Of a stretch of 39,082 bases of DNA, positions 15,474 through 35,828 are shown in pieces. The position numbers and the translations under genes were made by a program. The number at the start of each line of letters is the position of its first letter. The first letter of the stretch is position 1. The notes under the pieces are model-generated. The model saw only the letters and a list, made by a program, of their open reading frames with translations, searched no databases and was not told where the DNA came from. Source of the stretch: Candidatus Beckwithbacteria bacterium (GTDB lineage Bacteria > Patescibacteriota > Microgenomatia > UBA1400 > CG1-02-47-37); assembly GCA_043826085.1 (NCBI GenBank), contig JBDRQW010000110.1, positions 1 through 39,082 on the forward strand. The letters are read 5' to 3'.

Positions 15474-16130
15474 TTAGGTGTGATCGATTAAGGTTTTATT
15501 TGAGAGAATATCACTATTTATGCTTTTAATACCATCTAAAGTAAATTGCCAGAAAGAATCGGTTGATTTAAAGTGAGATTTAATATCTTTAGTTTGGCAA
15601 AAGCCTTGTCTTTTATTTAAGTATTCTGGTAGGCTGCTCCAGAGATAATTTTTTAGTTGAGTAGCATTGAGTGGATTGTATTTAAGGTTAGCCGGATTGG
15701 TGTGGATATAACGAGTAAGGTGAATTAATTGTTCTTGAATATCTATGTTAACTTTTTTATATTTTGATTCAAAGAGTCGCCCGCTTCTTGTATATTTTTT
15801 GTTAAAAAAAGTTGTGTAGCTGTTGCCTAATCGTTGAGCAAATTTGGATAATTCTTCTTTTGAATTTGATTTAACTATTATGTGGTAGTGATTACTCATT
15901 AAACAATATGCGTGTATCTCAGCAATGTAGGGGCCATATAGTTTTTCAAGTTGGGTAGATCCTAATGCTTCAAACTGTTCATTTCTTGTTTTTCTTTCCA
16001 TGTCAGAAATTTTTGGGGAGTTTAATAGAAGAGAATTATGAATGGCGAGGAGAAATCTTTGCTTATCGTTAATATCTTGAAATATATTTCGCTTGTCAAC
16101 TCCGCGATTGTAAATGTGATAAAAAGCCAT
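15474..16130 (-). CDS. IS200/IS605-type Y1 (HUH) transposase-like protein, RAYT-like
   Basis: YHIYNRGVDKRNIF, HUH-type motif YCLMSNHYHIIV, TGRLFESKYK-like SGRLFESKYKK, and the tyrosine helix LTRYIHTNP. Confidence 0.7.
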   Translation of the reverse strand: MAFYHIYNRGVDKRNIFQDINDKQRFLLAIHNSLLLNSPKISDMERKTRNEQFEALGSTQLEKLYGPYIAEIHAYCLMSNHYHIIVKSNSKEELSKFAQRLGNSYTTFFNKKYTRSGRLFESKYKKVNIDIQEQLIHLTRYIHTNPANLKYNPLNATQLKNYLWSSLPEYLNKRQGFCQTKDIKSHFKSTDSFWQFTLDGIKSINSDILSNKTLIDHT

Positions 16131-16141
16131 GATTTAGTATA

Positions 16142-16160
16142 ACACACATCAGATGTGTGT
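16142..16160. repeat. Palindrome ACACACATC-A-GATGTGTGT next to the RAYT-like gene start
   Basis: 9-bp perfect arms, 12 nt upstream of the minus-strand ATG at 16130. It is the only copy in the window. Confidence 0.6.
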
Positions 16161-22885: not shown

Positions 22886-23679
22886 GATTTATAAAAAAAT
22901 TAGAAAAAGTGGTAAAAGAAAAAAACTCGTTGGTGTGTGTGGGATTGGATAGTAACTTTGATAAGTTACCGGATCGCTTTAAACAATTAAAGTGCCCTCA
23001 GTTTGAGTTTAACAGGTGGATTATTGATCAAACAGTAGATTTTGTTTGTGCTTATAAGCCAAATTTTGCTTTTTATGAAGCTAGGGGCGAGCGGGGTTGG
23101 TTGGAGTTGAGAATGACTATGGAGTATTTAAGACATGACCACTCCGGAGTGGTAACGATAGCTGATGCTAAAAGAGGGGATATTGGTAATACCAATCAGG
23201 GGTATGTAAAAGCCATTTTTGACGATTTAGGATTTGATGCAGTGACAGTTAATCCGTATTTTGGACGGGAGGCTTTACAGCCGTTTTTAGAAAGAAAAGA
23301 TAAAGGGATAATTGTGCTTTGTCGAACCTCTAATCCCGGAGCGGGCGAGTTTCAAGATTTAAAAGTTGATGGCAAGCCGGTTTGGCAGATAGTAGCTGAG
23401 AAAGTTAGAGATGATTGGAATAAGCACGGCAATTGTATGCTAGTGGTCGGAGCTACATACCCTGAAGAGCTTTACAAGGTACGGAATCTTGTAAAAGAGA
23501 TGACTTTGTTGGTGCCGGGGATTGGAGCTCAGGGAGGAGATGTAGAGAAGACTATAAAAGCCGGGTTATGTTCTAATAAAATGGGTTTGATAATTAATTC
23601 TTCAAGGGGAATAATTTTTGATAAAAATCCTGGCTTGGCAACAATGAAACTAAGAGATAAAATAAATCAATATCGATAA
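22882..23679 (+). CDS. pyrF: Orotidine 5-prime-phosphate decarboxylase (type 2)
   Basis: LVCVGLD, YKPNFAFYE, ADAKRGDIGNT and LVPGIGAQGG are type 2 motifs. There is an ATGA overlap with pyrE. Confidence 0.9.
   Translation: MRFIKKLEKVVKEKNSLVCVGLDSNFDKLPDRFKQLKCPQFEFNRWIIDQTVDFVCAYKPNFAFYEARGERGWLELRMTMEYLRHDHSGVVTIADAKRGDIGNTNQGYVKAIFDDLGFDAVTVNPYFGREALQPFLERKDKGIIVLCRTSNPGAGEFQDLKVDGKPVWQIVAEKVRDDWNKHGNCMLVVGATYPEELYKVRNLVKEMTLLVPGIGAQGGDVEKTIKAGLCSNKMGLIINSSRGIIFDKNPGLATMKLRDKINQYR
23138..23153. repeat. 16-bp perfect palindrome ACCACTCCGGAGTGGT (family F core) inside pyrF
   Basis: An 18-nt run, ACCACTCCGGAGTGGTAA, is identical to the intergenic 22-mer ATTACCACTCCGGAGTGGTAAT. It is translated as DHSGVV. 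Confidence 0.7.
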
Positions 23680-24593: not shown

Positions 24594-25217
24594 TTAGTCT
24601 ATAATTAATGATTTAATTTTTTCGATATTTGCTTCTGAAATAGGTGAGTTGAAGAATTGATAATAATTATCAACCTTTTCAGTAATATATTGGGGATAAA
24701 GCCAGTTTAGTGTCTTTGTTGCTTTTAAAAAGATAGAAAGAGAAGAGTGAGTGGTTTGGTGTTTGTGAATATATTTGGAAAGATAAATGAGTTGTTCTGA
24801 AGAATCTACAGTGACACATTTAAATTTTCCTTCGAATAGTGAACCGGTATGTTTGTACTTATTTCGAAAATGAATTGAGTAGGCAACGATTAAACGTCTT
24901 ATTAAGTTAGAGATATTAGTTTTTTCGGTGGCTGTTGGTAGTTGTTTTAGAAGTAGGTGATAATGGTTGGGCATTTGACAATAAGCCACTAAATGGACTG
25001 TAGGCTCTTTTTCCAAGTTCCGATCTTGGAATTTATTGACCTTTTTTTGGTAGGCAAAATGTCTGGTTCTTGGGAACTTTAGATAATAGGCGAGAATTTC
25101 AGTAAAAATATGATAGTCTTCTTTATCTTTATAAATCTTGTGCCTATAAGAGCCACGATTAAAAACATGATAGAAATGTTGAGGCTTAAAGTTTCGGGTG
25201 TAATATTTGCTGGGCAT
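24594..25217 (-). CDS. IS200/IS605-type Y1 (HUH) transposase-like protein, RAYT-like
   Basis: YHVFNRGSYRHKIY, YCQMPNHYHLLL, TGSLFEGKFK and LSKYIHKH. It is a paralog of the ORF at 15474-16130. Confidence 0.65.
   Translation of the reverse strand: MPSKYYTRNFKPQHFYHVFNRGSYRHKIYKDKEDYHIFTEILAYYLKFPRTRHFAYQKKVNKFQDRNLEKEPTVHLVAYCQMPNHYHLLLKQLPTATEKTNISNLIRRLIVAYSIHFRNKYKHTGSLFEGKFKCVTVDSSEQLIYLSKYIHKHQTTHSSLSIFLKATKTLNWLYPQYITEKVDNYYQFFNSPISEANIEKIKSLIID
25010..25032. repeat. Family D palindrome copy inside the RAYT-like ORF
   Basis: TTTCCAAGTTCCGATCTTGGAAT matches 22 of 23 positions and is translated in frame as FQDRNLE. Confidence 0.8.
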
Positions 25218-25250: not shown

Positions 25251-25273
25251 ATTCCAAGATCGGAACTTGGAAT
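25251..25273. repeat. Family D palindrome, inverted orientation (ATTCCAAGATCGGAACTTGGAAT)
   Basis: Exact reverse complement of the 24571-24593 copy. Confidence 0.85.
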
Positions 25274-25329: not shown

Positions 25330-25572
25330 ATGCAACAAATAGTTTCTATTACCAGTCAGGGCCAAGTAACTATTCCGGTGTCAGTGAGGAGGGCTTTTGG
25401 GATCAAGGGATCGGCAAAAGCATCTTTAAGAAAAAGAGGAGAAGAAATAGTGATAAAACCTGAAAAAGATTTTTGGAGTTTATCTGGGGGAATGAAATCA
25501 AAAATTAAACTAACAGATAAGCAGTTAAGAGATGCCAGAAAAGCTTTTGAAACTGATTGGGCTGAAGAATGA
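25330..25572 (+). CDS. AbrB/SpoVT-family antitoxin (VapB-like)
   Basis: QVTIPVSVRRAFGIK is a swapped-hairpin AbrB motif. There is a 4-nt overlap with the PIN gene. Confidence 0.7.
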   Translation: MQQIVSITSQGQVTIPVSVRRAFGIKGSAKASLRKRGEEIVIKPEKDFWSLSGGMKSKIKLTDKQLRDARKAFETDWAEE

Positions 25573-25949
25573 GAGAGGAATTATTAGATACTAATATTAT
25601 AACTAGATTTTTTATTGGAGATGTAAAAGCTCAACATAACAAGGCTGAGGAAATATTTAGAGAAGCAAAGTTGGGAAGAAGAAATTTAAGATTAGAATCT
25701 TTAGTGGTAGCTGAAGTTTGTTTTGTTCTTGAATCTTTTTACAAGAGAGAGAGACAAGAGATTGCCCAGTTTTTAAGTGTTTTTTCTAGTCAAGGGTGGT
25801 TAAGGGTAAGAGATAAAAATATTATTCAAGCTAGTTGGCAATGGTATCTAAAAGGTTTTCATTTTGTGGATAGTTACTTGATTGCTTGGAGCAAGGTCAA
25901 TAAAGGGAAAATATTAACTTTTGATAAGAAATTGAGTAAAATGGCTTGA
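25569..25949 (+). CDS. PIN-domain toxin (VapC-like)
   Basis: LLDTNIITRFF (first acidic residue), VVAEV and FVDSYL, with a size typical of VapC. Confidence 0.75.
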   Translation: MREELLDTNIITRFFIGDVKAQHNKAEEIFREAKLGRRNLRLESLVVAEVCFVLESFYKRERQEIAQFLSVFSSQGWLRVRDKNIIQASWQWYLKGFHFVDSYLIAWSKVNKGKILTFDKKLSKMA

Positions 25950-27916: not shown

Positions 27917-28186
27917 ATGACTAAATTACAGATAACTTTGACTAATCAGGAGGCTTTATTGCTTGGTTATGGGGCTTCAAATTTAGGGTATTCTTTGACT
28001 AGATTTGTTAAGTTTGTTCTTGGACAGAAAGCAGTTGAATGCGATCATGAAGTTCCTACTTTTAAAATGAGTAAAAAGACAGAAAAAAATGTTGAAGAGG
28101 CCATGAATGATTATAAGGCAGGCAGGACTGTGAGTGTCGATATTGATAAATTAGGCGAGTATTTTGAAAATGATAAAAAAAATTGA
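27917..28186 (+). CDS. Putative antitoxin (RHH-like) of a RelE/ParE-type pair
   Basis: Small ORF that overlaps the downstream toxin-like ORF. TTGACT at 27881-27886 and TAAATT at 27903-27908 lie upstream. Confidence 0.45.
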   Translation: MTKLQITLTNQEALLLGYGASNLGYSLTRFVKFVLGQKAVECDHEVPTFKMSKKTEKNVEEAMNDYKAGRTVSVDIDKLGEYFENDKKN

Positions 28187-28439
28187 ACTAAATGGTCGTT
28201 GTGAAAGAAAGCTAGCAAAAATTTATAAAAAAGATAAAAGATTATTTGGGAAAATTGAAGAGACTTTTAAGTTGTTTAAAGAAAACCCGGAATATTCCAG
28301 CTTGAAACTTCATAAGATTGGTGGAAAAAAATATCAGATTTGGAGCATATTTGTAAAAAAAGATTTTAGAATTTTATTTGAGTATGTGAAGAATGGAATA
28401 TTGGTGACTGACATTGGTAGCCATGATGAGGTATATTAG
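28170..28439 (+). CDS. RelE/ParE-superfamily toxin-like protein
   Basis: YSSLKLHKIGGKKYQIWSIFVKKDFRILFEYVKNGILVTDIGSHDEVY fits the RelE/StbE C-terminal pattern. I chose the ATG at 28170; the track start at 28164 is a TTG. Confidence 0.55.
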   Translation: MIKKIELNGRCERKLAKIYKKDKRLFGKIEETFKLFKENPEYSSLKLHKIGGKKYQIWSIFVKKDFRILFEYVKNGILVTDIGSHDEVY

Positions 28440-28449
28440 ATAATAGTTT

Positions 28450-29499
28450 ATGACATCAATAATTTCCTTTATTATTATTCTTTCAATTTTAGTCCTGGTT
28501 CATGAGTTGGGTCATTTCTTTGTGGCCAAAAAATTCGGGATAAAAATAGAAGAGTTTGGGTTTGGATACCCGCCAAGAATTTGGGGGAAGAAAATCGGGG
28601 AGACTATATATAGTCTTAATTGGTTGCCGTTTGGCGGGTTTGTGAGGATGCTGGGGGAAGACTCCAGCGGACAAGTGAATAATAAGAAAGATTTAAAAAG
28701 AGCTTTTTTTAATCAAACTAAAAAAGTTAGGATAGCGGTTTTGATGGCTGGGGTGGTGATGAATTTTTTATTGGGAGTAGTTTTATTTGGAGTGATTTAC
28801 ACTAAAATTGGGATTCCGGAACAAGTAGATTATTTAGTGGTGACTAATGTGGTAGAAGGGTCACCGGCTTATAAGGCCGGATTAAAAATTAACGATAAGA
28901 TTGTTAATGTGGGTAGCATGAGTGAGTTTATAAATAGTGTTAGTGCTCATGGCGGGGAAGATTATGAGTTAGAACTTTTAGACGGAAGAAAGTTAGTGGT
29001 GGTGCCAAGAATTAAAGAAGAAACACCGGAAGGTCAAGGGTCTTTAGGGGTGGCGATTACCAATGTGGATATGGTGATGTATCCGTATTGGCAGAGGCCG
29101 TTTAGGGGAATGCTAACCGGGCTAAAAGAAGCAATAGCGTGGGGTAAAGATATTTTTGAGTCACTTTCTTTGATGATAGTTAAATTGTTTAAAGGAGATG
29201 TGCCTCAAGATGTGGCCGGAGTGGTGGGGATTTACCAAATTAGTAAAAATGTATCGAGTCAAGGTTTAATAGCTGTTTTACAGTTTATGGCCATATTATC
29301 GATTAATTTGTCGATATTAAATTTACTGCCGATTCCGGCTTTGGATGGGGGACGGTTATTGTTTATTGCCATTGAAGCGGTGATGAAAAAAAGAATAAAG
29401 CCTCAAGTAGAGCAAGTAATTCACTTAGTTGGCATGGCTTTGTTATTAGCTTTAATGGTGCTGGTTACGATTGGTGATGTGAAGAGGTTGATTGGGTAA
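28450..29499 (+). CDS. rseP: RIP metalloprotease RseP (M50 with PDZ domain)
   Basis: HELGHFFVAK, a PDZ segment (GSPAYKAGLKINDKIV) and NLLPIPALDGG. Confidence 0.85.
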   Translation: MTSIISFIIILSILVLVHELGHFFVAKKFGIKIEEFGFGYPPRIWGKKIGETIYSLNWLPFGGFVRMLGEDSSGQVNNKKDLKRAFFNQTKKVRIAVLMAGVVMNFLLGVVLFGVIYTKIGIPEQVDYLVVTNVVEGSPAYKAGLKINDKIVNVGSMSEFINSVSAHGGEDYELELLDGRKLVVVPRIKEETPEGQGSLGVAITNVDMVMYPYWQRPFRGMLTGLKEAIAWGKDIFESLSLMIVKLFKGDVPQDVAGVVGIYQISKNVSSQGLIAVLQFMAILSINLSILNLLPIPALDGGRLLFIAIEAVMKKRIKPQVEQVIHLVGMALLLALMVLVTIGDVKRLIG

Positions 29500-29502
29500 A
29501 AT

Positions 29503-29539
29503 TTGACATTTGTATTAAAAAGTGGTAGTATTACTACCA
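29503..29539 (+). promoter_or_regulatory. Promoter TTGACA-17-TAGTAT with an overlapping 17-bp palindrome TGGTAGTATTACTACCA
   Basis: TTGACA at 29503-29508, TAGTAT at 29526-29531 and the palindrome at 29523-29539, just upstream of the AbiEi ATG at 29545. This is a candidate autoregulatory operator. Confidence 0.5.
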
Positions 29540-29544
29540 GTAAT

Positions 29545-30135
29545 ATGAATAAATTGGCTGAATTGCAAAAAACCAGAAGAAGAGTATTTACTGCTCAGGA
29601 TTTAGGTGTTTTATGGAACTATAAAGATTCAAGAAAGTTGTATGAATTAATAAAGTATTATGTTAATAATAAACAGATATATAGATTGTCAAAAGGATTG
29701 TATAGTTTAGATGAGTATGATAAAGACAGCTTGAGCTTAGATAGTAATTTGTTGTTTGAGGTAGCCAATAAATTGGTAAGAAATTCATATATTTCTTTAT
29801 TTACTGCTTTGAAATTTTATGGAGTGGTATTTCAGTATTATGGCGAGATATATTCTGTATCAAACAAGCCGGCGGTAAAATCGATAAAAGGGATACGATT
29901 TGTTTATAAAAAAATTAAGGATGATGTTTTGTTTAATGATATTGGGATTATTAAAAAGGGTTTAGCGAGAATCGCAGGGGTAGAAAGATCTATTTGTGAT
30001 AGTTTATATTTTTTCCCTAAATTAGGTTTGGAGCATGTTGAGAGAGTGAAAAAAGATAAAATAATGAAAGTGGTGGAGATTTACAATAATCAAGAGTTAA
30101 AAAAAAGAGTTAAAAAGTTAATGGAAGGAAAATAA
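29545..30135 (+). CDS. AbiEi-family antitoxin (winged-helix)
   Basis: VFTAQDLGVL...IYRLSKGLYSL wHTH pattern, with a 1-nt overlap with the AbiEii gene. The track start at 29503 is the TTG of the -35 box. Confidence 0.6.
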   Translation: MNKLAELQKTRRRVFTAQDLGVLWNYKDSRKLYELIKYYVNNKQIYRLSKGLYSLDEYDKDSLSLDSNLLFEVANKLVRNSYISLFTALKFYGVVFQYYGEIYSVSNKPAVKSIKGIRFVYKKIKDDVLFNDIGIIKKGLARIAGVERSICDSLYFFPKLGLEHVERVKKDKIMKVVEIYNNQELKKRVKKLMEGK

Positions 30136-30824
30136 TGTTAAATCTTGGTAAACATAAGCAAGTTTTAAGTAAGATTTTAATTAATTTAGTTGAAGAAAAA
30201 AGTGTTGTTTCAAGCTTAGGGTTTAAAGGAGGAACCGCTTTGTTCTTATTTTATGGTTTAGATAGATTTTCAACTGACCTGGATTTTGATTTGATTCAAG
30301 GTAAGCGTGGTAGCGGTAGTTTAGACATAGAATTAATTAATAAAGCAATAGAAAAGAATTTGAAAGTTATTGATAAGAGGGAAAAAAGAAATACATTGTT
30401 TTGGGTGGGAAGTTATCAAAAAGGTATGCAAAAAGTAAAAGTAGAGATTAATTTAAGAAAATTTCCAAATAAATATGAAGTTAAAAATTTTCGCGGTTAC
30501 TCAGTTTTGGTAATGAAACCCGAGTTTATGCTTGCTCATAAATTATGTGCGGTTTTAGATAGGAAGAATTTACAAAATCGTGATTTGTATGATGTATGGT
30601 TTATGTTTGAAAAAGATTTTTTGATTAATAAAGAAATAATAAAATTAAGAACAGGACAAACAGTTAAAGAATATTTTAAAAGTTTATTAAAGTTAGTTAA
30701 TAGTTTAGCTAGGGATTATGATATTTTGAATGGGTTGGGAGAAGTGCTGAGTGAGCCAAAAAAGGATTGGGTTAAGTCTAAGCTGTTGAGTGAATTAAGA
30801 GCTCAACTGTCAAGTAGGTTATAG
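30135..30824 (+). CDS. AbiEii/AbiGii-family nucleotidyltransferase toxin (DUF1814)
   Basis: GFKGGTALFLFYGLDRFSTDLDFD is the family's N-terminal NTase motif. Confidence 0.8.
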   Translation: MLNLGKHKQVLSKILINLVEEKSVVSSLGFKGGTALFLFYGLDRFSTDLDFDLIQGKRGSGSLDIELINKAIEKNLKVIDKREKRNTLFWVGSYQKGMQKVKVEINLRKFPNKYEVKNFRGYSVLVMKPEFMLAHKLCAVLDRKNLQNRDLYDVWFMFEKDFLINKEIIKLRTGQTVKEYFKSLLKLVNSLARDYDILNGLGEVLSEPKKDWVKSKLLSELRAQLSSRL

Positions 30825-30837
30825 ATTCTTTGATAAT

Positions 30838-30857
30838 ATTCCGATCCGGAGCGGAAT
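30838..30857. repeat. Family F variant palindrome ATTCCGATCCGGAGCGGAAT
   Basis: Lies 13 nt after the AbiEii stop codon. It shares the TCCGGA centre and ATT/AAT ends with family F. Confidence 0.7.
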
Positions 30858-30934
30858 AAGATTTTTAGGTTGAAGAAGACCCGTTTGTTTATGAGATTAA
30901 TAAAACGGGTGTAGCGAATTTAATTAGGAAACAG
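30858..30934 (+). pseudogene. Relic 3-prime end of a nucleotidyltransferase gene (paralog of 32069-32392)
   Basis: 30858-30956 aligns with 32329-32425. The relic reads DF*VEEDPFVYEINKTGVANL against the intact KDFKVEEDPFAYEINKTGVVI*. It has no upstream ORF and contains an in-frame stop. Confidence 0.65.
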
Positions 30935-30956
30935 ATTACCACTCCGGAGTGGTAAT
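30935..30956. repeat. Family F palindrome ATTACCACTCCGGAGTGGTAAT
   Basis: Perfect 22-bp palindrome, copy 1. Confidence 0.9.
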
Positions 30957-30959
30957 AAT

Positions 30960-30981
30960 ATTACCGTTCCGGAACGGTAAT
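30960..30981. repeat. Family F variant ATTACCGTTCCGGAACGGTAAT
   Basis: Perfect 22-bp palindrome in tandem with copy 1, with compensatory changes in both arms. Confidence 0.9.
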
Positions 30982-31001
30982 GTGAGGGATGTAGGGTTTC
31001 G

Positions 31002-31010
31002 TGCTATAAT
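31002..31010 (+). promoter_or_regulatory. Extended -10 TGcTATAAT, 7 nt before the mntA ATG
   Basis: The hexamer is at 31005-31010 and the ATG at 31017. The same GTTTCGTGCTATAATT box recurs at 31683-31698. Confidence 0.55.
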
Positions 31011-31016
31011 TTACTC

Positions 31017-31316
31017 ATGATTCCTACTTTAATAAAAACACATCAAAAATCTCTTGAAGAGATTGCTAAAGCCAATGATATTTCCTATTTGGCTTTATTT
31101 GGCTCTCATGCTCGCGGTGAACAAGTAAAAGATAGTGATGTGGATTTTTTGGTTGATTTTGAAAAACCAATTGATTTTTTTGAGCTTTATGATATTGAAC
31201 AAAATTTTTCAAACCTTTTAGGTAGAAAAATCGATCTTGTTACTATTAAAGGTCTTAGTAAACATATCAAGCCTTATATTCAAAATGACCTCAAGGTTAT
31301 TTATGAAACAACCTAA
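31017..31316 (+). CDS. mntA: MntA-type minimal nucleotidyltransferase antitoxin
   Basis: LFGSHARGEQVKDSDVDFLVDF is a GSxxRGx...DxD NTase motif. Confidence 0.8.
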   Translation: MIPTLIKTHQKSLEEIAKANDISYLALFGSHARGEQVKDSDVDFLVDFEKPIDFFELYDIEQNFSNLLGRKIDLVTIKGLSKHIKPYIQNDLKVIYETT

Positions 31317-31638
31317 TCCATATTTAAGTCATATCATCGAATCTTTTGATAAAATCGATATACTTCTTCATGGTTTTACTAAAGAAAAATTTGTTAAAGA
31401 TGAGCGTACTCAATTAGCAATTATTAAACTTTTAGAAATAATTGGCGAGGCCTGCGTTCATCTTAAAATTGATTTTTATAAAAGCCATCCAGAAATTCCT
31501 TGGGCTAAAATTATTTCTATGCGTAATCGATTAACTCATGAATATTGGGAAATTGATCTAGACATTGTGTGGAAAACTGTCAAAGAACGGGTTCCTGAAT
31601 TAAGAAAACAACTAGAATCGCTAGTTAAGTTAAATTAG
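31303..31638 (+). CDS. hepT: HepT-type HEPN (DUF86) toxin
   Basis: RNRLTHEYWEIDLDIVW carries the Rx4HxY motif. I chose the ATG at 31303, which overlaps mntA by 14 nt. Confidence 0.8.
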   Translation: MKQPNPYLSHIIESFDKIDILLHGFTKEKFVKDERTQLAIIKLLEIIGEACVHLKIDFYKSHPEIPWAKIISMRNRLTHEYWEIDLDIVWKTVKERVPELRKQLESLVKLN

Positions 31639-31645
31639 AAATAAT

Positions 31646-31667
31646 ATTACCACTCCGGAGTGGTAAT
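31646..31667. repeat. Family F palindrome ATTACCACTCCGGAGTGGTAAT
   Basis: Perfect copy, 7 nt after the hepT stop codon. Confidence 0.9.
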
Positions 31668-31687
31668 ATAGTGTATATAGGATTTCG

Positions 31688-31696
31688 TGCTATAAT
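31688..31696 (+). promoter_or_regulatory. Extended -10 TGcTATAAT, 8 nt before the HEPN gene ATG
   Basis: The hexamer is at 31691-31696 and the ATG at 31704. Confidence 0.55.
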
Positions 31697-31703
31697 TGGT
31701 TAC

Positions 31704-32099
31704 ATGAATATCAAAAAACTTCAAAATTATTGGTTTGATGGTTATAAAGATGCTTTATTGACAGCGGAAAAACTTTACGAGGCTAAAAGATATCATCATT
31801 GTTTGTTTTTTGGCCATTTAGCTTTGGAGAAATTACTTAAAGCGGTAGTAGTTAATAAAATAAAGACTCATGCTACGCCCACTCATGATTTAGTCAAATT
31901 AGTAAAAGCTACCAATATTGAAATTTCAGCGGAGATTTTAGATGATTTAGCTGAAATAAATAAATTTAATATTAATGCTAGATATGATAGTTATAAATTA
32001 GCTTTTTATAAAACCGCTACAAAAGAATATACGATTATTTGGAGATTAAAAATTAAAAAAATTTCTATATGGCTCAAGTCAAAATTAAACCAGAAATAA
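31704..32099 (+). CDS. HEPN-domain protein (PF05168-like)
   Basis: AEKLYEAKRYHHCLFFGHLALEKLLKA...PTHDLVKL is a HEPN pattern. I chose the ATG at 31704; the track start is a GTG inside the promoter box. Confidence 0.7.
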   Translation: MNIKKLQNYWFDGYKDALLTAEKLYEAKRYHHCLFFGHLALEKLLKAVVVNKIKTHATPTHDLVKLVKATNIEISAEILDDLAEINKFNINARYDSYKLAFYKTATKEYTIIWRLKIKKISIWLKSKLNQK

Positions 32100-32392
32100 G
32101 AAAAATAGTTCTTAATTATAAAAAAGCTTTGGAATTGGCGGGTTTGAAACAAAGTCAAGTGATTTTGTTTGGTTCTTATGCAAAAGGCACTGATAAGCCA
32201 TTTAGTGATATTGATATTTGTGTGGTTTCGTCTCAATTTGGGCAAGATGAAATGGGTGAATCGGTAAAATTGAAAACAATTTCAGTGCCGGTGGACATTA
32301 GGATTGAGCCTCATCCATATTCGGTGAAAGATTTTAAGGTTGAAGAAGATCCGTTTGCTTATGAAATTAATAAAACAGGGGTAGTGATTTAA
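32069..32392 (+). CDS. Minimal nucleotidyltransferase partner of the HEPN protein
   Basis: ILFGSYAKGTDKPFSDIDICVVS motif. It overlaps the HEPN gene by 31 nt. Confidence 0.75.
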   Translation: MAQVKIKPEIRKIVLNYKKALELAGLKQSQVILFGSYAKGTDKPFSDIDICVVSSQFGQDEMGESVKLKTISVPVDIRIEPHPYSVKDFKVEEDPFAYEINKTGVVI

Positions 32393-32403
32393 TTAGAAAA
32401 CAC

Positions 32404-32473
32404 ATTACCACTCCGGAGTGGTAATATAGGGGATGTATATAGATTACACATGTTGTTTTTATATAAATATGGT
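32404..32473. repeat. 70-bp module: family F palindrome (32404-32425), ATGTATA/TACACAT hairpin and an A/T-rich box
   Basis: 68 of 70 positions are identical to 32914-32983. Confidence 0.85.
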
Positions 32474-32515
32474 TTTGAAGATAGTGGATTATTGTAGTAT
32501 AATTTATTGTATATT

Positions 32516-32803
32516 ATGAAAAGATCTAGTAATCATCATCATATTTTAAGTTACCGAGTCATTATTGAACCTGAAAAAGTAAAACAAAAGACTATATATA
32601 ATGTTTATTGTCCGACTTTAGGGTTAGTTGATTATGGAAACAGTTTACAGGGGGCGTTAAGGCGAATGAAAAAATTAATGAAATTTCATTTAGAATGTTT
32701 GATTGATGAGAGTAAAACAGTACCCGCTCTTGATAAAGATGAGTCTTTTGTTGGAATGACATCGGTGAATATATCTGGTAGGTCAAGTTTTGCTTTTGGT
32801 TAA
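32516..32803 (+). CDS. hicB: HicB-like antitoxin (N-terminal UPF0150-type domain)
   Basis: YRVIIEPEK...YNVYCPTLGLVDYGNSLQGALRRMKKLMKFHLE fits the HicB N-terminal domain pattern. A TATAAT lies at 32498-32503. Confidence 0.5.
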   Translation: MKRSSNHHHILSYRVIIEPEKVKQKTIYNVYCPTLGLVDYGNSLQGALRRMKKLMKFHLECLIDESKTVPALDKDESFVGMTSVNISGRSSFAFG

Positions 32804-32939
32804 TGAATATGGCAAAATTGCCGACTGTTAAAGGCAGGGAACAATGCGGGCAATATTAAGACAGATTGATATTTCGGTTGAAGATTTTGTAAAATTTTTA
32901 AGAAAGAGGAAATATTACCACTCCGGAGTGGTAATATAG
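32803..32939 (+). pseudogene. hicA: Decayed hicA (internal deletion plus frameshift)
   Basis: A TAATG overlap with hicB gives MNMAKLPTVKGREQCGQY* (HicA N-terminus, LP.V.G.E). In another frame, 32844-32939 reads RAILRQIDISVEDFVKFLRK (HicA C-terminus). The central GSH/His-containing part is missing. Confidence 0.5.
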
Positions 32940-32983
32940 TGGATGTGTATAGATTACACATGTTGTTTTTATATAAATATGGT
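32914..32983. repeat. Second copy of the 70-bp module (family F palindrome at 32914-32935)
   Basis: See 32404-32473. The module runs into TGgTACTAT (32980-32988), 9 nt before the ATG at 32997. Confidence 0.85.
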
Positions 32984-32996
32984 ACTATAGGATAGT

Positions 32997-35828
32997 ATGG
33001 CTGAAAAAACAAAAGGTTTAATATATCATAAGCCCGAACCGATGGGCATTATGGAATTAGCAGATAGATTTGTTGATAAAACCGATCCAAGAACAGGTCA
33101 AGATACTTCTTTCTTAGGAATCTTTAGAACTATTTTATCTGATTATACCTGGGCTTTTAGAACCATGGCAGATCAAGGTATTACCAAGATAATATCGAGG
33201 AAAGTGGATATTGAAACTTTAGAGCCAAGAGAAGATAGGGGTGGTTATAGAACTTGGGAAGAATGGCGAACAGAAGATTTGAAAGGGTATAGCCTTTCAA
33301 TGAAAGGTGAAAGGAGAAAAAGATTTGTTCCAATAATTGAAGGCAAACCAAACTGGAGAGCAGTCAGGAATCTAGCCCCGTTTGTTATGGCTGGAGTTTT
33401 ATTGGCAACAGGTTGTATTTCTGCGGGAGAAACTATTGCAAACCCTAATAACGACGGAAGTGATCCAGATGCAAATGGAAATATGTGTGGAGTTTTGCTT
33501 AATCAAATGAGCGAAGCCGGAGGAGGATCATTTGGTGATAGTGTTGATATGATGGTAGTGGACGCTAATCTAATGAATGAAATAACTAAAGACGACGTAA
33601 TTACTCCCGAGGAAATTCAAGAGATTCAAGGTCAACTGGGTTGTTTTGCAAGTGTTAGGGTAGACAATATTATAATTCCAGATAAACAAAATGGAATAGA
33701 GTCAATTATTAAGATAAGGTACGATGGGCATGATCTTTTGGGTTTAGTGTCTGATGAGATAAATGATGGGGTTAACTCTTTTTCAAAAGTAGAAGTTGTT
33801 TATGCGGGTGGTATTTCAATGGACCAAGGTAATTTAGCTACAGAATTAAGAAGGGTTCATATTGATGGCAATACCGGAGATGTTATAATTGTTGATGGCA
33901 AGGATATAAATTTGCAAGCGGAATGGAATAATGATCAAATTAAGTTAGTGTTTACAGATACTGATGGGAAACAGATTATTTTAGGTCATGATCAGGCGGT
34001 TGATATTTTTGGTGCTGAGATAGTTGCCGGTTTAGGGTTAACTGCGTCGCCAACGCCAGAAGTTACGGCAGTGGTTGATAATGGCATACAAGGAAAACCA
34101 TATCCGGTGAGCACGGAAGGGTTTGGTTTGGCAAGTGGTGGGAATGAAATACAAATAAGAGATGCTATTTATGAATTGAGTGGTGGGGATGCTCAGCATA
34201 TAGAATTATTAATTAAGTGGCGTTTGTGGAGGCAGTATAATGATGCACATTTTGATAATCCTTTAGAAGCGACGCAGGAAGCAGTTGATAAATTTTTTGA
34301 TGATAACTATAAATTTGAGAGAGAAATTCTGGCGGGGGAAAGCTGGACGGTAGTAGCTCAAGATAAAAAAACCGGAGAGTTTTGGTCAGCGGCAAATGAA
34401 GGGTCTTTTTATCATTCGTTTATTCCGCTTTATGCTGAGACTATAGATGATTTTATTTTGAGTAAAGTTGAAATTCCGAATTGGGCGGATGAGATGAAAA
34501 TAATTGCGGTTACTGAAGGTAAGTCCCTTGGACACTTTGTAGCCGGTTTTTATAAAGATGGTGAATTTGTTGGCTGGTTTGACATAGAAAATAATATACC
34601 TATTCAAGAACAAATTATGGCGGAATTGCCGGCGGGGGTGGTGAATTTGTTAGCAGAATTAGGAACTGCTTTTGAGGGTGAGGATTATGAGATGAGGGGG
34701 AGTGAGGTTTATTATACGGCTGAGGGGGCAGATAAATTGATTTTTAATGTGGAGAATAAAGATGGGGTGGAGATGGCGGTTTTTGCGGGAGAGGGTAATG
34801 TTGAGTATCCGTTGAGCTGGGTTGGTTTTCAAGAAATGGAGGGTACGACTGTTTTGAACCCGGAAGTTTTAACTGATGCGGGGGCGATATTGCAAAAAGT
34901 GGAAATGAGCGTTAATTCAGAAAATAGATTGGTGGTAATAAGACCAAGTGAGGATGTTGATCAATTTTGGAATGAGTTTGAGAGTCAAATGAGTGTTGGT
35001 AATCAATGGGAAAAAGAAACCTTAAGAAGACTGCAAGGCGAGAACGGGGTTATGGATGTAGGGGTGATGCAAACAGAGATGAATAAGTGGCTGAGTAATG
35101 GCTGGGTTGAAGCCATGGTGGTAGATGGGGAATTAATGGAAGTGCCAACTCCGAGATTAGGAATGCCTGAAAATCAAGATGATTTATTGGAAATAGATAC
35201 AAGAATTTTGGCTGTTTTTATGGAAAAGCTGTTGGTGTTTGAAAAAACAGAAATGTTGACTAATCCAATTAAATTTAACGATGAGTTAATTAGTAATATT
35301 CGTACAGCTGATGATATAGTTAATTCTCAATTTAGAACAAGAGATTTTGTGACTAATAATTCTAGTTTAATCGGGGGAGTCTTTAAAGTTTCCGATGGTC
35401 GATTTTCAGATGACATATTGGTATTTGGACTGTCAAGTAAACTTCAAAGTGCTACTCCGGAATTTACTTGGACAACTTTACATTTTGGGATAGATATGGA
35501 AGCAATGGCTGAATACTTATCAAAGAATAATCTTCCCTTAAGCAGGTATGGATGGGTTGCTCTTCAAAGACTGGAAAGTGGAGATTTTCGGAGAGTATTT
35601 GTTAGAACTATTTTTGATAATAAAGAAGGCATTGATAACAATGGTTCTGAAGAATTGATGTGGTTATTGAGTAAATTGAATACATCAAAAGAGGGGGATG
35701 ATGATTGGAGTCAAGTATTTGAAACTATGAGAGGTGATAAGGTGCCTGTGACGAAGGAATTTATAGATTTTTTAGAAAGAAATATTATTCCGGCTGTTTT
35801 TACCACTGTTTATGAAAACAATGAATAG
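32997..35828 (+). CDS. Large (943 aa) acidic membrane-anchored protein of unknown function
   Basis: A long ORF with coding-like composition and a single hydrophobic segment, APFVMAGVLLATGCISAG, about 125 aa from the N-terminus. I recognise no domain. Confidence 0.6.
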   Translation: MAEKTKGLIYHKPEPMGIMELADRFVDKTDPRTGQDTSFLGIFRTILSDYTWAFRTMADQGITKIISRKVDIETLEPREDRGGYRTWEEWRTEDLKGYSLSMKGERRKRFVPIIEGKPNWRAVRNLAPFVMAGVLLATGCISAGETIANPNNDGSDPDANGNMCGVLLNQMSEAGGGSFGDSVDMMVVDANLMNEITKDDVITPEEIQEIQGQLGCFASVRVDNIIIPDKQNGIESIIKIRYDGHDLLGLVSDEINDGVNSFSKVEVVYAGGISMDQGNLATELRRVHIDGNTGDVIIVDGKDINLQAEWNNDQIKLVFTDTDGKQIILGHDQAVDIFGAEIVAGLGLTASPTPEVTAVVDNGIQGKPYPVSTEGFGLASGGNEIQIRDAIYELSGGDAQHIELLIKWRLWRQYNDAHFDNPLEATQEAVDKFFDDNYKFEREILAGESWTVVAQDKKTGEFWSAANEGSFYHSFIPLYAETIDDFILSKVEIPNWADEMKIIAVTEGKSLGHFVAGFYKDGEFVGWFDIENNIPIQEQIMAELPAGVVNLLAELGTAFEGEDYEMRGSEVYYTAEGADKLIFNVENKDGVEMAVFAGEGNVEYPLSWVGFQEMEGTTVLNPEVLTDAGAILQKVEMSVNSENRLVVIRPSEDVDQFWNEFESQMSVGNQWEKETLRRLQGENGVMDVGVMQTEMNKWLSNGWVEAMVVDGELMEVPTPRLGMPENQDDLLEIDTRILAVFMEKLLVFEKTEMLTNPIKFNDELISNIRTADDIVNSQFRTRDFVTNNSSLIGGVFKVSDGRFSDDILVFGLSSKLQSATPEFTWTTLHFGIDMEAMAEYLSKNNLPLSRYGWVALQRLESGDFRRVFVRTIFDNKEGIDNNGSEELMWLLSKLNTSKEGDDDWSQVFETMRGDKVPVTKEFIDFLERNIIPAVFTTVYENNE

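Follow-up and report, generated by a model that had tools for sequence, protein, structure and literature searches.

The stretch of DNA analysed here (the window, 39,082 nt: positions 1 to 39,082 of contig JBDRQW010000110.1, assembly GCA_043826085.1) comes from a Candidatus Beckwithbacteria bacterium and has a G+C content of 36.4%. Downstream of rseP it carries an array of toxin-antitoxin (TA) modules on one strand, and the subject of this study is a short palindrome that marks the junctions of these modules (Table 1). The named homologues of RseP and of the Y1 transposase of the window belong to Patescibacteria, mainly to Candidatus Beckwithbacteria. The perfect palindromes are 20-26 nt long, have a GC content of 38-45% and are centred on CCGG. 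The 22-mer ATTACCACTCCGGAGTGGTAAT occurs exactly at 30935, 31646, 32404 and 32914, and no copy was found in 100 dinucleotide-preserving shuffles. Together with one compensated variant and one imperfect relative, these four copies occupy a span of 2.1 kb, where they mark the junctions of the modules AbiEi/AbiEii, nucleotidyltransferase (NT) relic, MntA/HepT and HEPN/NT. There are seven copies in the 39 kb. The density of 6 copies per 2.1 kb in the array, compared with about 3 in about 75 kb (the remainder of the window and the rseP-anchored loci), corresponds to an approximately 70-fold enrichment.

The original prediction had listed five modules, i.e. AbiEi/AbiEii, an NT relic, MntA/HepT, HEPN/NT and HicB with a decayed hicA, with the palindrome, exact or compensated, at every junction. 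Pfam, PADLOC and NCBIfam bear out the labels AbiEi, AbiEii, MntA, HepT, HEPN and NT, so of the candidate type IV, VII and II modules, AbiE, MntA/HepT and HEPN/NT belong to known TA families with the toxin and antitoxin genes side by side, whereas HicB stayed below threshold and hicA was not detectable, since no hidden Markov model matched at 32804..32913. A single-sequence AlphaFold 2 model of the HicB-like protein was unusable (predicted local distance difference test, pLDDT, 46.5), and an exact look-up of this protein in other contexts gave no record. As to the palindrome, the statement holds for the four exact copies and for the compensated copy at 30960; the copy at 30838 (ATTCCGATCCGGAGCGGAAT) has one unpaired position and belongs to a different subfamily. 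The NT relic was recognised correctly. The 30838 palindrome ends, on its right, exactly where the homology of the relic to the intact NT gene sets in. A synonymous-biased divergence of the relic was considered and rejected, and the 4 synonymous and 6 non-synonymous changes, along with two premature stops, indicate that it is simply decaying. Promoters had been placed 40-90 nt after the palindromes; each module does have its own -10 element, but these begin 23 nt past the palindrome in two cases, and 72 nt and about 47 nt past it in the others.

Each copy is predicted to form an RNA hairpin of -10 to -13 kcal/mol, and the hairpin begins 12 nt past the stop of abiEii, 5 nt past that of hepT and 11 nt past that of the NT gene. 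The copies at 30935 and 30960 make up a doublet that resembles the REPINs (doublets of repetitive extragenic palindromes, REPs, forming hairpins) and is predicted to fold into one long hairpin of -27.9 kcal/mol. No T-tract follows on the coding strand, T-rich tails being present only on the non-coding strand, i.e. the copies are not built as intrinsic terminators. Terminators with a GC-rich stem and a T-run follow the pilin genes of relatives, and the two observations together argue that the palindrome is not the ordinary terminator of this lineage. No Rfam family was found in 29400-33100.

Table 1. Features of the window and of the loci compared with it (L, fetched locus; NT, nucleotidyltransferase; REP, repetitive extragenic palindrome; CDS, coding sequence; RAYT, REP-associated tyrosine transposase).
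Feature	Position	Strand	Evidence or remark
RAYT-like HUH/Y1 paralogue 1	15474..16130	-	tblastn 37% identity to L005 protein, E 1.8e-33; Y1_Tnp E 1.1e-8
Degenerate REP copy (20/22) in pyrF CDS	23135..23156	.	translated DHSGVVT; missed in the original prediction
RAYT-like paralogue 2	24594..25217	-	tblastn 31% identity to palindrome-flanked L005 protein
REP family of paralogue 2, TTCCAAG-N7-CTTGGAA	24572-24592, 25011-25031, 25252-25272		second copy in its own CDS
rseP, M50 site-2 protease	28450..29499	+	left edge of variable slot; Pfam Peptidase_M50 E 6.6e-57
abiE promoter, TTGACA-17-TAGTAT with TG	29503..29544	+	read from sequence
AbiEi antitoxin	29545..30135	+	PADLOC AbiEi E 2.5e-33
AbiEii toxin, NT	30135..30824	+	Pfam AbiEii E 1e-23; PADLOC E 2.3e-57
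REP-like palindrome, second subfamily, TATTCCGATCCGGAGCGGAATA	30837..30858	.	one mismatch; 12 nt after abiEii stop
NT 3' relic, pseudogene fragment	30858..30934	+	87% identity to 32328-32390
REP, AC type, ATTACCACTCCGGAGTGGTAAT	30935..30956	.	exact copy
REP, GT type, ATTACCGTTCCGGAACGGTAAT	30960..30981	.	two positions per arm changed, both compensated
Promoter P_B copy 1, TGcTATAAT at 31002-31010	30982..31016	+	box ends 6 nt before ATG 31017
MntA-type NT antitoxin	31017..31316	+	Pfam Polbeta/NTP_transf_2; NCBIfam MntA_antitoxin 59.1 bits (cutoff 60)
HepT toxin, HEPN RNase	31303..31638	+	Pfam HepT-like E 1.3e-28
REP, AC type, 26-nt perfect palindrome	31644..31669	.	5 nt after hepT stop; RNA hairpin -12.7 kcal/mol
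Promoter P_B copy 2, TGcTATAAT at 31688-31696	31670..31703	+	box ends 7 nt before ATG 31704
HEPN-domain protein	31704..32099	+	Pfam HEPN E 1e-13
NT partner of HEPN protein	32069..32392	+	Pfam NTP_transf_2 E 1e-10
Repeat unit U copy 1	32395..32473	+	REP (32404-32425) and 48-nt right flank with second small hairpin
HicB-like protein, weak	32516..32803	+	Pfam HicB_lk_antitox E about 0.0045, below cutoff
Non-coding stretch, predicted as decayed hicA (unverified)	32804..32913	+	broken reading frames
Repeat unit U copy 2	32905..32983	+	REP (32914-32935) and 48-nt flank as in copy 1; lies 5' of orphan giant gene (ATG 32997)
folD gene with palindrome at orthologous site	L019 153-905; L026 3003-3806; L030 7315-8109
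prfA gene with palindrome at orthologous site	L004 5397-6293; L021 1-792
RAYT-like gene flanked by palindromes	L005 2653-3345; L015 1411-2082; L033 10001-10672; L034 7363-8028; L035 10001-10666; L036 828-1502		six loci, five species

The palindrome is also found at ordinary genes of other genomes. The degenerate motif TTACCRYTCCGGARYGGTAA is very rare, with 3 stretches in a collection of one genome each of 185,579 species and 15 in the JGI metagenome collection; seven contigs of the richest metagenome carry the palindrome, and viral contigs have no copy. The intergenic copies lie 6-9 nt past the stops of ftsZ, pheT and recO. About half of the copies outside the window are intragenic, and the genes concerned are prfA (two species), folD (three species) and those of an rsmI-like methylase, a kinase, a racemase and a pilin-like protein; the pyrF copy of the window belongs to the same group. 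The FolD proteins of the three species are 44-46% identical, and the residues P-L-R-S-G at the palindrome are invariant, one compensated 20-nt variant included. We considered whether the intragenic copies are in-frame insertions and rejected this for FolD and PyrF, both of which align without gaps to solved structures and have loops of native length, the pyrF copy corresponding to native residues of solved orotidine monophosphate decarboxylases. Release factor 1 is 5-6 residues longer at its palindrome copy than the solved structures.

On each strand the palindrome can be read without a stop codon in two frames out of three (LPLRSGN, YHSGVV), and this explains why it is tolerated within CDSs. 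The fact that its symmetry is kept there points to selection at the DNA or RNA level, or else to concerted evolution with the copies that flank a transposase-like gene described below. The Rickettsia palindromic elements are in-frame insertions of 100-150 bp, which Ogata and colleagues in 2000 reportedly found to be tolerated inside protein-coding genes. In contrast, the 20-22 nt copies seen here overlie native-length loops of FolD and PyrF and are not clear insertions. The Rickettsia elements have been reviewed among the miniature inverted-repeat transposable elements (PMC10969869).

In relatives the palindrome flanks a gene whose product is similar to the REP-associated tyrosine transposases (RAYTs). 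In L005/L007/L020 and in L015 two copies enclose an open reading frame (ORF) of 223-230 aa that lies between a prepilin peptidase gene and the major pilin gene. This ORF matches Pfam Y1_Tnp above the cutoff (the gathering score was passed by 5 of the 5 proteins tested), and its best NCBIfam match is REP_Tyr_transpos. The scores with the NCBIfam RAYT model NF047646, which is the best and almost the sole match, are 22.8-45.2 bits as compared to a cutoff of 80, which indicates that the family is a distant branch. The HUH (NH[FY]H) and Y-I-H motifs are present without exception in the 50 sequences compared, and the C terminus of the protein (ITTPEW, then stop) is encoded by the palindrome itself. 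The family comprises 4,578 proteins at E <= 1e-10, and the named members are from Patescibacteria. The structure that AlphaFold predicts for the L033 protein (pLDDT 93.6) most resembles, among the folds in the PDB, 4ER8_A (E 3.3e-7, target TM 0.65), which is E. coli TnpA-REP in complex with a REP hairpin; the TnpA proteins of ISDra2 and IS608 rank after it. A sequence-only PDB profile search with the family gave marginal matches only (IS200-type TnpA, E 0.44).

The location of the gene is fixed. In all six loci, down to 54% identity, it lies between the A24 prepilin peptidase and major pilin genes of a type IV pilus operon and is transcribed against the operon. The orthologues at 85, 77, 74 and 54% identity occupy this same site, and each is flanked by a palindrome of altered sequence: ATTACCGTTCCGGAACGGTAAT in L033, ATTCCATCCCGGGATGGAAT in L034 and L035, and both ATTGCACCCCGGGGTGCAAT and TTCCGATCCGGATCGGAA in L036. 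In L015, as in L033, the RAYT-like gene is bounded by the GT type that is also present in the array of the window. The 30838 copy of the array is of the same subtype as TTCCGATCCGGATCGGAA, which lies 3' of the L036 gene and differs from that copy by one mismatch. A longer mobile unit or flanks that would orient the palindrome across species were looked for, and only weak flank similarity was found. As a side remark, an enzyme of single-stranded DNA in a pilus operon could conceivably be linked to the DNA-uptake machinery of Patescibacteria.

The variants differ in a concerted manner. Among 12 variants, part of which had been picked for being palindromic, 7 of the 9 stem pairs are altered in both arms, 95% of the cells are paired and the symmetry around CCGG is kept; none of 500 shuffles and no slid register comes close.

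The original prediction had suggested a search for RAYTs, and the window itself in fact holds two diverged RAYT-like paralogues that it had overlooked, both with the Pfam domain Y1_Tnp. Paralogue 2 is flanked by a palindrome family of its own, and the copy inside its CDS encodes KFQDRNLEK. In its L030 orthologue a compensated palindrome, TTCGAAG-N7-CTTCGAA, is present at the same three places. This is an independent second case of a palindrome paired with a RAYT-like gene, so that a RAYT-like gene between cognate REPs is now found at the six pilus loci, at paralogue 2 and at its L030 orthologue. For paralogue 1, REP_Tyr_transpos is the best NCBIfam match, below the cutoff. The gene sits between the ribonucleotide reductase and dcd genes and has a single 19-nt hairpin, ACACACATCAGATGTGTGT (16142-16160), on its 5' side with no 3' partner. 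The unit of paralogue 2 adjoins a MazE/PIN pair (25330-25949). Two small genes beside this second REP family seemed to be present or absent between L030 and L031; this candidate was rejected because of a run of Ns in L031.

We consider it likely that the palindrome, a hairpin repeat, is of the REP type and has as its partner a RAYT-like HUH/Y1 transposase domesticated in this lineage of ultrasmall bacteria, and that it has piled up in a slot that collects TA modules. The resemblance to the REP/REPIN-RAYT systems of E. coli (TnpA-REP, 4ER8) and Pseudomonas is extensive: the HUH/Y1 fold is closest to TnpA-REP, palindromes flank the gene, palindrome and enzyme lineage vary together, doublets occur beside the gene, copies lie near stop codons, and in several species the gene occupies the same chromosomal position, which may reflect vertical inheritance. 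There are also differences. We find a handful of copies rather than tens to hundreds, i.e. no over-representation of the classical kind, and the proteins, at 207-230 aa, score below the NCBIfam RAYT cutoff. REPs are described as being defined by a conserved tetranucleotide, GTAG or CGTC, on one of their ends (PMC3733652), whereas the copies here begin with ATTAC, ATTCC or ATTGC and have no such tag. The conserved copies in housekeeping CDSs, the pilus-operon site and the host, a member of the Patescibacteria (candidate phyla radiation), are likewise distinctive. RAYTs have been defined, and low-copy groups of them are known (PMC5581495). In the literature search we found no description of RAYTs or REPs in Patescibacteria.

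In relatives the slot behind rseP contains other TA modules. Where RseP is 82% identical (L026/L028), one NT gene follows and then the contig ends; at 75% (L029) there is PhdYeFM/ParE and then a class II aminoacyl-tRNA synthetase gene; at 69% (L030-L032) there is BrnT/BrnA-CopG and then the same synthetase gene as in L029. None of these slot junctions has a palindrome, hence the slot is a TA hotspot independently of the repeat. The array and the orphan giant genes that follow it constitute a lineage-specific island. The 943-aa protein encoded directly after the array (32997-35828) has no Pfam domain, and its sole homologue in 5.8 billion clustered proteins is itself, which is why its gene was rejected as a right-hand anchor for locus comparison. 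A conserved intergenic slot that receives either a TA module or a REP is known between folA and apaH of E. coli, where the ccdO157 module is present in some lineages and a REP in others (PMC3184786); the slot studied here is unlike it in that several TA modules and REPs alternate in one lineage.

The array had originally been read as a cassette system of gene pair, palindrome and promoter, reminiscent of TA-rich integron arrays. The layout itself, the decay of the relic and one breakpoint at a palindrome edge stand; a dedicated integron-like system does not. The attC sites of integrons are imperfect inverted repeats of 57-141 bp with extrahelical bases, integron cassettes are promoterless, and the array adjoins an intI tyrosine recombinase gene with an attI site and a Pc promoter. 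The array does share with integrons the small same-strand modules, the many TA pairs, a palindromic site at the end of each module and the signs of decay. In contrast, there is no intI or tyrosine recombinase gene in the 39-kb window, the site is a perfect one of 22-26 nt that has neither extrahelical bases nor an R'/R'' core, each module brings a promoter of its own, and single copies of the site are also present at ordinary genes and within CDSs. That no integrase is visible had been stated correctly: the scanned ORFs of at least 90 aa (housekeeping, TA and Y1 transposase) contain no tyrosine recombinase or Phage_integrase domain. All integron features tested for are thus missing, and the palindrome as the joint of an integron-like cassette system is not supported, given that it flanks a RAYT-like gene, follows ftsZ, pheT and recO and sits in housekeeping CDSs, that the repeats run 48-60 nt beyond it, and that the TA modules in the slot of relatives do without it. 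The presence/absence polymorphism expected of cassettes was not seen across the window and three further assemblies of the same species, in which the cassette order is identical and the differences are single-nucleotide polymorphisms (SNPs) only. The alternative named at the outset, a generic REP or terminator, is favoured as far as the REP is concerned; a low-copy repeat with such an enrichment in the array is no generic terminator.

A capture mechanism without an integrase would be an integron analogue of another kind: the RAYT-like HUH enzyme would excise and insert promoter-bearing TA cassettes as single strands at the palindromes. It would explain why there is a copy at every module junction, why the relic homology starts exactly at a palindrome edge, and why there are three palindrome subtypes, including the back-to-back pair 30935/30960, as would result from joining cassettes that each bring their own ends; moreover, two RAYT-like genes lie within the same 39 kb, and the IS200/IS605-type enzymes to which the fold is related act on hairpin ends. 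We nevertheless regard it as rather unlikely. The TA modules in the same slot of relatives lack palindromes, two collection scans revealed no TA-associated copy outside the species of the window, and the other copies are solitary, beside or within ordinary genes. Furthermore, the order of the cassettes is the same in four assemblies of the species, and the duplicated segments extend 48-60 nt past the palindrome, as expected of homologous recombination and not of cleavage at the foot of a hairpin. The wider proposal, that the HUH enzyme captures, duplicates and deletes TA cassettes while the same enzyme-site pair is kept in housekeeping genes and in the pilus (DNA-uptake) operon, we hold to be quite improbable.

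The array repeats are palindrome-plus-flank segments that were copied locally (D2, D3 and D4), and it is these that extend 48-60 nt past the palindrome. In D2, the copies at 32395-32473 and 32905-32983 share 92% identity across 79 nt (97% across 70 nt) and bracket the 510-nt hicB-like segment. In D4, 30954-31011 and 31640-31697 are 81% identical over 58 nt and share the palindrome and the TGcTATAAT promoter. The flank motifs are absent from the rest of the window and from every fetched locus of other species, which identifies the repeats as local duplications rather than parts of a dispersed element. One could conclude that the whole array has a local history, in which one intergenic hairpin with its promoter was tandemly duplicated, the match between palindrome and RAYT-like gene reflects shared hairpin ancestry, and the hairpin, 5-12 nt past the stops, is a terminator without a U-tract. 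The local duplications and the flanks confined to the array agree with this. We give it little probability, since the same 20-22-mer occurs in unrelated contexts of several species without conserved flanks, and each of the three array subtypes matches one beside RAYT-like genes elsewhere. In addition, a coding-strand T-tract is missing although canonical terminators exist in the lineage, and the intragenic copies cannot be terminators.

The two P_B promoters have extended -10 boxes that end 6-7 nt 5' of the ATGs, and no Shine-Dalgarno sequence precedes the ATG of mntA or of the HEPN gene, suggesting that both mRNAs are probably leaderless. At these two promoters the palindrome ends 23 nt before the -10 and abuts the -35 position, as might an operator, i.e. 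a double-stranded DNA site for a dimeric regulator that controls the promoters of neighbouring TA modules together. The perfect two-fold symmetry of the 22-mer and the symmetric covariation are compatible with a dimeric binder. Still, the distance to the -10 varies (23, 23, about 47 and 72 nt), copies lie in CDSs and behind genes that have no promoter next to them, and the palindrome has no linked regulator gene, the sole consistently linked gene being that of the HUH transposase, which is not a transcription factor. We therefore think an operator very improbable.

If the palindrome is a REP maintained with a RAYT-like enzyme, its copies could have been seeded in trans by this enzyme into the dispensable junctions of the TA island. 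Recombination between palindrome-containing repeats may then have duplicated, truncated and reshuffled the modules, which would account for the NT relic at the palindrome edge and for the 510-nt hicB-like segment between repeats of 70-79 nt. At the RNA level, a hairpin placed 5-12 nt past the last stop of one module, with the next -10 following at a distance of 23-72 nt, would most likely protect the 3' end and insulate independently promoted operons from each other. E. coli REPs less than 16 nt from a stop codon are reported to lower the translation of the upstream gene (PMC12306157, from its ref. 17). By analogy, the hairpin may dampen translation of the distal gene of a module; in AbiE and MntA/HepT this gene encodes the toxin.

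Several points weigh against the REP-RAYT interpretation. The 39-kb window does not contain the pilus locus with the cognate RAYT-like gene. No pair of empty and filled sites or other direct trace of transposition was found, the copy number is far below that of classical REPs, and the NCBIfam RAYT scores, at 41-45 bits, do not reach the 80-bit cutoff. Symmetric covariation would also fit a double-stranded DNA site of a dimeric protein, and the partial preselection of the covariation set is a further reservation. The RNA-level roles are read from sequence. Finally, orthologous copies within CDSs, as in folD, are atypical of selfish REPs and hint at a conserved cellular role.

This last point is of interest in its own right, as conservation of the folD and prfA copies speaks for a cellular role beyond selfish spread. 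Patescibacteria have genomes of about 1 Mb that are thought to be poor in repeats. A low-copy palindrome that varies together with its enzyme, the latter fixed in a pilus operon, could serve as a compact model for domesticated RAYT function, and the TA island illustrates how hairpins may insulate and reshuffle independently promoted defence or addiction modules at a hotspot.

Contigs stop or contain stretches of Ns at or next to palindromes or just past rseP (the ends of L001 and L024/L025; L031 4996-5095; L033 10678-10790). Assemblies break at the repeats, exactly at the TA islands, which are therefore likely to be under-represented in metagenome-assembled genomes. Logan contigs that end about 50 nt (L002, L003) or 22 nt (L024/L025) past rseP suggested graph branching and were set aside as not interpretable in terms of polymorphism.

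A separate 17-nt palindrome, TGGTAGTATTACTACCA (29523-29539), overlaps the abiE promoter directly 5' of the AbiEi start. It is outside the REP family and is likely an autoregulatory operator of AbiEi. Directly 5' of rseP there is a further TA pair (27917-28439), an 89-aa gene and a toxin gene of the ParE/RelE family, without a palindrome; it is kept in the 82-85% relatives and absent from the 69-75% relatives. The differences between assemblies of the same species are clustered, with 8 in 34 nt in the HEPN gene (31850-31883, L001 only) and 7 SNPs in the hicB-like gene (32551-32780), the remainder of the array being nearly identical. Gene conversion from paralogous copies is a possible source of both clusters.

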